Positions 5,770-7,555 of a stretch of 64,000 bases of DNA are shown here, in pieces. The position numbers were made by a program, and so were the translations under genes. Positions within the stretch are counted from its first letter, which is position 1. Each line of letters opens with the position of its first letter. The stretch is taken from NCBI RefSeq assembly GCF_056712565.1, contig NZ_JBWXXM010000002.1. One strand, given 5' to 3'. The notes beneath the pieces are model-generated. The model searched no databases. It was not told the DNA's origin and saw nothing but the letters and a program-made list of their open reading frames with translations. The DNA is from a plasmid.

Positions 5770-6045
5770 ATGAATGAACTAAAATCCAAAAACGAGAACA
5801 GTACCAAAAGCAACTTTCCCCCGGTTGATAATCAGTTTTGCTTTTACCATGTTGATTTCAGCATAGAACGACTACTTTCTACGGCCGAGGATCTCCAGCT
5901 TGAGTACATCTTCCAGAAACCTGGAAGTGAAGTAAGAAAGGATTTGGTTGAGCGATTCGAACGTGGAGAGCGCTTTGTTACAGCTTCACACTGTGACAAT
6001 TTCTGTGAAATCCTTGGTTGTCAAGGCCATCAGGAAAATGCATAA
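5770..6045 (+). CDS. hypothetical small Cys-rich protein, first gene of 8-gene operon
   Basis: ATG 5770 preceded by GGAGAG; ORF track start 5740 is further upstream; C-terminal CDNFCEILGCQGH. Confidence 0.4.
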   Translation: MNELKSKNENSTKSNFPPVDNQFCFYHVDFSIERLLSTAEDLQLEYIFQKPGSEVRKDLVERFERGERFVTASHCDNFCEILGCQGHQENA

Positions 6046-6089
6046 ACCCATAAACCTACATTTCCACTTTTAAGGATGTTCACTAAAGA

Positions 6090-6680
6090 ATGATTGGAGA
6101 AAGTATTTTTGACTGGGTAATTTACGGAATATCCATTTTGATATTTGCCTCAGCACTAATTGAAGGAAAGACAACTCGCTACCCAGCACTTTTTTTCTAT
6201 GGGAGTTTAATTTTAATGTTAATCCTGATAGTTGCTGGAGGCCTTAACTGGTGGTTCTACAGGTCAAAATATGGCGCAGTAATCGTTATCTTCACAGTGG
6301 TTTCTTTACTGATGACTCGATTCCGCCTGGTCATATATAAATTAAGATTAAGAAAGTTAGTTTCAGAGATCAGATTTCGTATAAAAACGGGTTTTCGTAT
6401 AATTCTTGTTTTGTCGGATAATGAGGATGAGCGTAATGTTCTGCTGTCTATGCTTAGCAACGTATTGCCAGAGCAAACGCTTATTCACACGCGTGATGCT
6501 CTCGGACCTCATTCAGGGCCTATCCTAAAAGCTCTTGAGCTACATCATCAACAGGGAACAGGTTACATACTCGTCTGTGAACAACAAATCTCAGCGCGTA
6601 CGTGGTTGAGTATCGTAGAAAATGGGAAACCTGATACATCTATAGCTGTTAATTTTCATTCGATCCCAGAAATGGAGTGA
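6090..6680 (+). CDS. hypothetical membrane protein (3 predicted TM helices plus soluble C-terminal domain)
   Basis: hydrophobic N-terminal segments; operon context. Confidence 0.5.
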   Translation: MIGESIFDWVIYGISILIFASALIEGKTTRYPALFFYGSLILMLILIVAGGLNWWFYRSKYGAVIVIFTVVSLLMTRFRLVIYKLRLRKLVSEIRFRIKTGFRIILVLSDNEDERNVLLSMLSNVLPEQTLIHTRDALGPHSGPILKALELHHQQGTGYILVCEQQISARTWLSIVENGKPDTSIAVNFHSIPEME

Positions 6681-6687
6681 TTTTTCA

Positions 6688-6945
6688 ATGAGTAGAACCG
6701 TTTCACAAAGTGTCACAGAAGATTGTCTTTTTGATACCCGCACACAAGTCAGATTACAACTAAGTCGAAGCGTTCATAAAACGCTGGCATCTGCTAAAGA
6801 AATTTTACAGGGAAGGGGGGTTGATTCGGTCTCTATTGAAGATCTTGTGCGAGCCTGTCTTGAAGAGAACCAGCCAATTGATCTCGCCTCACTTTACCTT
6901 GAAAATCTCTTAAAACAGAAAGGTACCAGCATTTGCGATTTTTAG
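6688..6945 (+). CDS. hypothetical protein (85 aa)
   Basis: ORF 8 nt after previous stop, GGAGTGA RBS. Confidence 0.45.
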   Translation: MSRTVSQSVTEDCLFDTRTQVRLQLSRSVHKTLASAKEILQGRGVDSVSIEDLVRACLEENQPIDLASLYLENLLKQKGTSICDF

Positions 6946-7018
6946 TGTTTTCAAACCTATTAGATAAAATGCCGGTTGTGTTTATATAACATCAATAATT
7001 TCATGCAACAGGTAAAAC

Positions 7019-7555
7019 ATGAGTACTCAAAAGCAACTTTCCAGAACAACCGGCACTGAACGTATGTTTAAGGAAGAGCTGGCGTTATCCTTAATTTGTT
7101 GGGTTTTCACCAGTCCATTTACCAACTGGACCGATAAAGTCTTCAGTGGTATTGAAGTTCCGTCTGAAGGACCGTCAACATTACTGGGTGAGGCTGAAAA
7201 ATTCTTTCGTTTTGTCGTTAATGAAGAAGGCTACGACGCAGGAAGGGCTGCTCTTGGTCTTGACCTATGTTGTTTTTCACTTCCGTCGTGTTTGTTCCCG
7301 GACGCTGCCCTGTCTGAGGAAGAGGTTATGAGTAAGTTAACCGGAGAAGTTATCCATGGGATTCTTCTTTCCTTACCTGAATTTATTGATATGCCAGAAG
7401 TGCTCGCTTACCAGGTCAGGGATGAAATTCTTGCTTTTAACACTCGCTGTGGAGACGGGATCTTTCATGGTTGGAACACGGCTTCAGAATTGTGGAAGTT
7501 TGAAATCTTTCCCCGCACCACCATCATGATGCAGCATACTTCGGCAATACATTAA
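7019..7555 (+). CDS. hypothetical protein (178 aa)
   Basis: ORF in operon; no recognisable motif. Confidence 0.5.
   Translation: MSTQKQLSRTTGTERMFKEELALSLICWVFTSPFTNWTDKVFSGIEVPSEGPSTLLGEAEKFFRFVVNEEGYDAGRAALGLDLCCFSLPSCLFPDAALSEEEVMSKLTGEVIHGILLSLPEFIDMPEVLAYQVRDEILAFNTRCGDGIFHGWNTASELWKFEIFPRTTIMMQHTSAIH

Follow-up and report, generated by a model that had tools for sequence, protein, structure and literature searches.

Multidrug resistance in typhoid Salmonella, and in Enterobacteriaceae more widely, is carried by plasmids of the types IncHI1 and IncHI2. Here we analyse a stretch of 64,000 nucleotides (nt) from contig NZ_JBWXXM010000002.1 (assembly GCF_056712565.1), referred to throughout as the window, and in it a repeat of about 20 base pairs (bp) close to the 5′ ends of two genes, gene 1 and gene 4, that lie ahead of a gene for a Tus-like protein. 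By its sequence, the window belongs to the backbone of a conjugative IncHI2 plasmid that carries resistance: the 3 kb around the repeat match 1,128 plasmids in PLSDB, from Escherichia, Salmonella, Enterobacter and Klebsiella, at an identity of at least 99%.

A shared sequence at the start of two genes

Gene 1 (positions 5770–6045, + strand) encodes a hypothetical protein of 91 amino acids, WP_001004201, and gene 4 (7019–7555, + strand) a hypothetical protein of 178 amino acids, WP_000107168. Both sit within a series of eight or nine genes on one strand that includes the Tus-like gene (8109–9071, + strand; PF05472 Ter, E = 4e-19), and no other gene of the series, gene 1 and gene 4 among them, matches a Pfam family. 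A Pfam and NCBIfam scan of genes 1–5 of this operon recognised no DNA-binding domain. Between gene 1 and the genes upstream of it lies a strong intrinsic-terminator-like hairpin, GGCACGGTTTCCGTGCC (5546–5562, + strand), followed by a T-run; hairpin and T-run together occupy 5546–5572. Because this hairpin parts gene 1, the first gene past it, from its upstream neighbours, gene 1 probably opens the transcription unit that includes the Tus-like gene.

The first copy of the repeat, AGTAC-CAAAAGCAACTTTCC, occupies 5800–5819 on the + strand (nt 31–50 of gene 1), and the second, AGTACTCAAAAGCAACTTTCC, occupies 7022–7042 on the same strand (nt 4–24 of gene 4), with their centres at +42 and +16 from the respective start codons. 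They match over 20 identical bases, with a single T inserted in copy 2 at 7027, and their ungapped common block is the 15-mer CAAAAGCAACTTTCC (5805–5819 and 7028–7042). Each contains the 11-nt core AAAGCAACTTT, at 5807–5817 in copy 1 and 7030–7040 in copy 2. The identity ends at 5800 and 7022 on one side and at 5819 and 7042 on the other, and the two encoded proteins are unrelated. The sequence-only reading that first pointed to the repeat had placed the second string exactly, at 7023–7042; its first string, GTACCAAAAGCAACTTTCC, is also present, as 19 nt at 5801–5819 rather than at 5801–5820. It had described two strings that differ by one inserted base, as they do, and had missed the A that both copies share on the left (5800 and 7022). 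Copy 1 reads S-T-K-S-N-F-P and copy 2 reads S-T-Q-K-Q-L-S, the frames parting after the indel. The encoded residues thus differ, as had been claimed, and since the reading frames of the two copies differ, the likeness is one of nucleotides and not of protein.

A dispersed palindrome in IncHI plasmids

The core of the repeat resembles an 11-bp palindrome, AAAGTWACTTT, that is dispersed over the window and over the two plasmids that we used as references, the IncHI2 plasmid pD90-1 (NZ_CP022451.1; 222,470 bp, typed IncHI2A) and the IncHI1 plasmid R27 (NC_002305.1). Nine exact copies were found in the window against about 0.1 expected; pD90-1 has 32 and R27 has 42, where chance would supply about 0.15 to each. 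All copies in pD90-1 fall in the backbone and none in the 70-kb resistance region. Alignment of the sites brought out weaker symmetric flanks, with the consensus r-g-A-AAAGTWACTTT-T-c-y. We write the family, which is defined in this analysis, as rAAAGTWACTTTy for exact sites or as r-AAAGYNRCTTT-y when tolerated positions are included.

At least half of the exact copies lie between genes, and placement in an intergenic region 50–250 bp before a start codon accounts for 41% of exact sites in IncHI2 and 31% in R27, compared with 7.5% of random positions. Family sites lie upstream of transfer (tra) operons, for example at trhA, at a trhF-family gene and in the divergent region between mobI and the 108907 gene. 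The intragenic copies occur in all three frames, where they encode KVTF/L, xKLLx or KSNF; selection therefore acts on the DNA, and we rejected a protein-level cause for the family. The central A/T of the palindrome switches between close relatives, A and T are equally frequent there, and upstream of genes the two orientations are equally frequent as well, so that the site is symmetric, as would suit a dimeric DNA-binding protein. Sites of the family are also conserved at orthologous places in IncHI1, IncHI2 and related lineages. The exact site at 4399–4409 (intergenic, 146 bp before the next start codon) and that at 8592–8602 (inside the Tus-like gene, encoding KKVTF) are retained in lineages of about 60–65% DNA identity, the former in IncHI1, HI1B, L011 and L020, and the latter at the same place in every sampled lineage that reaches the Tus-like gene, including L020–L022 and R27.

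Three R27 copies, at 67018, 92113 and 142406, share a longer left flank, GCAACCGGGA-AAAGTWACTTTT, and this hints at a sub-family, or at a larger unit that is repeated. The motif strings appear in no relevant paper of the literature that we searched, and nothing usable came from searches for an IncHI regulator whose binding motif has been defined, or for an IncHI Tus/Ter system.

The shared core is a tolerated variant of the palindrome

Both copies of the repeat read AAAGCAACTTT, which is AAAGTWACTTT with T replaced by C at position 5. Two classes of one-mismatch variants, and no others, are enriched on these plasmids: those with C or G at the centre (four copies per plasmid in IncHI2 and R27), and those with T-to-C at position 5 or its mirror image, A-to-G at position 7 (eight in IncHI2 and five in R27, with about 0.13 expected per variant). 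When the gene-1 and gene-4 copies are left out of the count, there remain six occurrences of AAAGCWACTTT in IncHI2 and five in R27, where chance would supply about 0.26 per plasmid, an excess of about 20- to 30-fold. Substitutions at the outer positions are rare in the family, and the variation is therefore not the product of uniform decay. The two forms also replace each other at one place: the exact site that IncHI2 carries where htdO begins is, in R27, a position-5 variant.

The sequence-only reading had called the core a one-base variant of the dispersed motif AAAGTAACTTT, and this was borne out, with the addition that the variant is itself over-represented. Both copies differ from the family at tolerated positions alone, and by sequence both cores are shown to be members of a conserved, over-represented and symmetric DNA motif family. 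Their flanks follow the family's preference for A at −1, T or C at +1 and C at +2: each carries A at −1, C at +1, where C ranks second to T, and C at +2, and departs from the preference at −2, with C in place of G. They do not share the family's usual placement in intergenic DNA 50–250 bp before a start codon, since both are intragenic, as are about half of the exact sites. In gene 1, the variant base makes a synonymous serine codon, AGC for AGT, and AGT would yield an exact site; the change of AAAAGCAACTTT to AAATCTAATTTC in this gene is an example of a synonymous change within the core. In gene 4, an exact site with A at its centre would introduce the stop codon TAA.

The 20-bp unit does not stand out from chance

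A search of a full replicon had been proposed as a check on the repeat; in the whole of pD90-1, the 20-mer was found nowhere beyond these two places, and the 15-mer CAAAAGCAACTTTCC has these two occurrences alone, both in the window and in the entire plasmid. Over the window as a whole, six exact direct repeats reach 15 nt or more. Markov simulation predicts 0.17–0.35 pairs per window that match at 20 or more bases across a single 1-nt indel, and 15–28% of the simulated windows carry one or more; the real window has two such gapped pairs, one of which is unrelated to this repeat. The pair by itself is not significant; significance attaches to its 11-nt core, through membership of the dispersed family. 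An independent 20-bp element was accordingly rejected, as the replicon contains no third copy and the pair is within chance for 64 kb.

We then counted flank matches, with one indel or mismatch tolerated on each side, for all 2,070 pair-orientations that the 46 family sites of pD90-1 can form. The copies in gene 1 and gene 4 have nine such matches; three pairs score 10–12 and four others also score 9, so that 8 of the 2,070 reach 9 or more, and R27 has 31 family-site pairs at or above that score. With seven other family pairs in pD90-1 equalling or exceeding its flank identity, the 20-bp unit was rejected as an element of its own: sharing of this extent is ordinary among family sites and the 20-mer needs no separate explanation. 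Of the four bases that border the core in both copies, two, the A at −1 and the C at +2, are those that the family itself prefers. The nine extra flanking bases (CA and CC, which adjoin the core, and AGTAC on the far side of the 1-nt indel) are a coincidence that these flank preferences have aided.

The two sites in related lineages

We compared lineages comprising R478-type IncHI2, L009/L010, L011, L012, L014, L015, L020–L022, L023, L024, IncHI1 and IncHI1B, the intermediate relatives among them having been gathered through protein-cluster look-ups. Both copies are intact in R478-type IncHI2 and in L009/L010, in which the gene-4 protein is 87% identical and bases nearby have changed. Copy 1 was found exclusively in IncHI2-type lineages (the window, L009/L010, L012, L015 and L024) and is missing from L023, L011, L020–L022 and IncHI1/HI1B.

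The copy in gene 4 reaches further. In the metagenomic lineage L023 (66% protein identity), gene 4 keeps ATGAGTACTCAAAAGCAACTTTC and gene 1 reads AGTATTAAAAGAATTTTG; in L011, a Photorhabdus plasmid contig (71% identity), gene 4 keeps AAAAGCAACTTTCCAG and gene 1 reads AAAAGCTCATTTAC. The longest block identical between the window and L023 measures 27 nt, holds ATGAGTACTCAAAAGCAACTTTC and spans the ATG of gene 4. Across 2.5 kb at 62–68% DNA identity, the window, L023 and L011 have just three blocks of at least 13 nt that are identical in all. One of these, AAAAGCAACTTTC (7029–7041), coincides with the core extended by a single base to the left and to the right, and is all that the three have in common at this place. 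The codons for K5, Q6 and L7 of gene 4 are identical in the three lineages, against a background of 25% of the codons for conserved residues (P ~ 0.016). Judged from these alignments, the gene-4 site is older, clade-specific and under nucleotide-level constraint, and the gene-1 site is recent in the IncHI2 lineage and unproven.

Gene 1 of L014 (a contig of GCA_901485035.1) has a core that reads AAAGCAACTTC, one T short in the TTT run, with a compensating insertion 9 nt further on that gives NFPRFDN for NFPPVDN. This may be either a real pair of frameshifts that destroys the site or a homopolymer error in the assembly.

Alternative explanations

The most serious alternative is coincidence combined with coding constraint, under which A-rich N-terminal codons for Lys, Ser, Asn and Gln easily spell AAAAGCAACTTT, the best pair in 64 kb was picked out, and the repeat has no role at the level of DNA. 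The number of equally good gapped pairs expected per window and the six exact repeats given above speak for this account. It also fits gene 1 well: the relatives' gene 1 has a K-S-x-F context, which in L011 (AAAAGCnnnTTT) already supplies 9 of 12 bases (8 of the 11 of the core), so that two or three substitutions make the core, and the gene-1 copy has no excess of conservation. The division of variant sites between coding and intergenic DNA, which is that of random positions, points the same way. Set against this are the over-representation of AAAGCWACTTT even without the two copies, and the conserved block in gene 4, which matches the motif boundaries exactly in three diverged lineages, with synonymous positions frozen. 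We regard coincidence as a possible but rather doubtful account of the pair.

Far less probable is an element acting at the level of RNA, in which the shared 20 nt would be the target of a small RNA (sRNA) or an RNA-binding protein, or part of a structure that tunes translation initiation. Both copies do lie within the first 50 nt of coding regions, in the manner of elements of the downstream-box or sRNA-target kind, which act within the first codons, and the minimum-free-energy fold of gene 1 pairs CUUUCC of the repeat with the Shine-Dalgarno sequence GGAGAG. Structure prediction around both start codons, however, revealed no fold that is significant or common to both (z = −0.63 and +0.28 against shuffled sequences), and the structures of the two regions differ. 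No Rfam family scores above its threshold, and no Rfam match overlaps one or the other copy; antisense matches on the plasmid all fall short of 12 nt, and those of 10–11 nt are as frequent as chance would give. The offsets from the start codons are unequal (+31 and +4), and the family to which the core belongs is a palindrome in DNA that turns up in either orientation, in every reading frame and also in spacers that are not transcribed. Unlike 5′-coding translational elements, then, the copies come without a conserved structure or partner or a match to a known family, and the palindromes lie mostly outside 5′ coding regions: 13 of 99 family sites fall in the first 80 nt of a coding sequence (CDS), compared with about 8% expected, which is not a significant enrichment. 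The suggestion that the repeats are translation-regulatory elements thus found no support in the folds, in Rfam, in the antisense search or in 5′-CDS enrichment.

The neighbouring Tus-like gene raises the question of Ter-like sites, with the cores (GYAAC) serving as arrest sites for the Tus-like protein encoded 1–2 kb downstream. The Escherichia coli Ter core, GTTGTAACTA, contains GTAACT, which the exact family core shares; the two copies carry GCAACT and so match five of the six bases. One family site lies inside the Tus-like gene wherever that gene was reached, and the plasmids lack canonical Ter sites, although both encode a PF05472 Tus-like protein: neither NZ_CP022451.1 nor NC_002305.1 has a canonical E. 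coli-type Ter, the core GTTGTAAC occurring at the chance rate and without the extended consensus, and this core is absent from both copies. Yet Ter is an asymmetric, polar site of 23 bp present in a few oriented copies, whereas the IncHI motif is a palindrome whose centre flips, and its 32–42 copies face in either direction throughout the plasmid, with no point at which the polarity changes over and no fork-trap arrangement. Forty bidirectional fork barriers would, moreover, be incompatible with replication. On the symmetry of the motif, its orientation and the lack of canonical Ter on either plasmid, we rejected Ter-like sites, to which we give even less credence than to an RNA element.

Least credible of all is a transfer of sequence, one copy having been written from the other through a short duplication or a gene-conversion patch: the 20 identical bases with a single indel, the distance of 1.2 kb on the same strand and the younger gene-1 copy would agree with it, but 20 nt are shorter than RecA-dependent exchange usually needs, the identity ends abruptly on both sides without extending past the core region into further flanks or into the proteins, which are unrelated, the intermediate state of gene 1 in L023 (AGTATTAAAAGAATTTTG) points to gradual point substitution, and other, distant family members share flanks as long or longer.

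Other sites and neighbouring sequences

The remaining exact sites of the window are spread over its length. The site at 828–838, AAAGTAACTTT, is intragenic and encodes KSNF; that at 12037–12047 is intergenic, 165 bp before the next start codon; that at 27706–27716 is intragenic; and that at 32299–32309 is intergenic, between terD and the next TerD-family gene. Further exact sites are found at 43970–43980, at 57114–57124 and at 62973–62983, the last of these at nt 15–25 of a thermonuclease-family CDS, an offset that is the same in R27. Variant sites lie at 15847–15857 (AAAGTAGCTTT, A-to-G at position 7 and thus the mirror image of the variant in the two copies) and at 60877–60887 (AAAGTCGCTTT).

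Two further conserved sequences lie upstream of the genes that carry the repeat. The longest block identical in the window, L023 and L011 is ATTTGTATACTGTTC (5738–5752, + strand), 18–32 nt before the ATG of gene 1; its core, TTTGTATACTGTT, was found in every lineage sampled, IncHI1 included, and the block may be a candidate promoter (with TATACT as a −10 region) or an operator. In the 73-nt spacer ahead of gene 4 lies GGTTGTGTTTATATAAC (6974–6990), whose core, TGTG(T/A/C/G)TTA(T/G/A)ATA, is kept in each of the lineages that we sampled; this suggests that gene 4 and the genes after it are served by an internal promoter or by a regulatory element. Upstream of the terminator-like hairpin, 3440–4378 and 4550–5506 hold adjacent paralogous genes for proteins of about 312 and 318 amino acids (27% identity, E = 2e-37); they belong to a run of five hypothetical genes for proteins of about 300 amino acids, of which the one that we checked has no Pfam family.

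Discussion

We favour, with moderate confidence, the explanation that the copies in gene 1 and gene 4 are secondary, variant members of the IncHI palindrome family and putative sites for a dimeric plasmid DNA-binding protein. The family as a whole would be the binding sites of a plasmid-encoded, dimeric global regulator or organiser, and the two copies would be secondary sites, probably of lower affinity, situated just inside the 5′ ends of the two genes. A protein bound there could hinder the initiation of transcription, or its elongation, into the Tus-like operon. The gene-1 site would have arisen recently in the IncHI2 lineage out of the K-S-x-F coding context. The earlier proposal that the repeats are binding sites is therefore reasonable for the core of 11–13 nt, in view of the enriched variant and the exchange at htdO, and does not hold for the 20-bp unit.

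Several observations weigh against this explanation. Variant sites are mostly intragenic (12 of 14 in IncHI2 and 9 of 11 in R27) and are placed much as random positions would be, so that some of them may be decaying or neutral. Both copies are missing from IncHI1, IncHI1B and L020–L022. For the gene-1 copy, the probability of no change in 20 nt is 0.12 in comparison with L010, in which the copy lies within an identical run of 43 nt. The conservation in gene 4 could come partly from constraint on the translation-initiation region, because the 27-nt block shared with L023 spans the ATG. No sigma-70-like promoter was called over 5450–7150, no promoter element stands at a fixed spacing from the intergenic sites, and no information is found downstream of them beyond +2. 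Finally, we found no binding protein for the palindrome family and no published motif that corresponds to it.

A bolder form of the explanation would make the palindromes an undescribed set of operators for an IncHI-wide master regulator, with the gene-1 and gene-4 copies as low-affinity intragenic operators that put the Tus-like operon under that regulator in IncHI2. We offer this tentatively, as a possibility on the unlikely side. There is a precedent in the KorB operators (OB, TTTAGCSGCTAAA) of the IncP-1 plasmid RK2, a 13-bp palindrome present in 12 copies. Like these, the IncHI motif is a short, perfect palindrome that is repeated over the backbone of a conjugative plasmid and kept among related plasmids, with some copies at or upstream of promoters and others distant or intragenic. 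It differs in that the sequences are unrelated and that the IncHI plasmids have 32–42 exact copies against the 12 of RK2.

As to the protein that might read such a set of operators, we can name candidates by conjecture. Transfer of IncHI plasmids, together with the majority of their genes, is known to be controlled by a circuit that the plasmid itself encodes, and one candidate is this TrhR/TrhY–HtdA circuit of R27, which affects 139 of 181 expressed genes, both tra and non-tra (PMC7366339), a reach that fits a regulator with about 40 dispersed sites. The same study defines neither a DNA-binding motif nor DNA targets for TrhR, TrhY or HtdA, and no DNA-binding domain of Pfam or NCBIfam is recognisable in the three proteins; the link is conjectural. 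The other candidate would be a KorB-like orphan protein with a ParB helix-turn-helix (HTH) domain. An orphan protein of 385 amino acids, encoded at 45191–46348 in R27 (IncHI2 orthologue at 111055–112218 in NZ_CP022451.1) with no adjoining parA, has a borderline ParB-HTH match (PF17762 at the cut-off; Spo0J, E = 0.05) and is, by this resemblance, a possible KorB-like DNA-binding protein; nothing ties it to the palindrome. We also observed that the third gene of the htdA-led operon of R27 (16077–16640), annotated as a ‘plasmid transfer protein’ of 187 amino acids and named htdK (PMC7366339), has a product that matches the Whirly family of single-stranded-DNA-binding transcription factors (PF08536, E = 2.5e-5, just above the cut-off).

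The 20-bp repeat has little weight alone, as it resolves into two members of a larger family. That family, a palindrome with 30–40 copies that is enriched upstream of operons, is a testable candidate for the DNA targets of the TrhR/TrhY–HtdA circuit, and the tolerance at position 5/7 and at the centre shows which sites such experiments should include.

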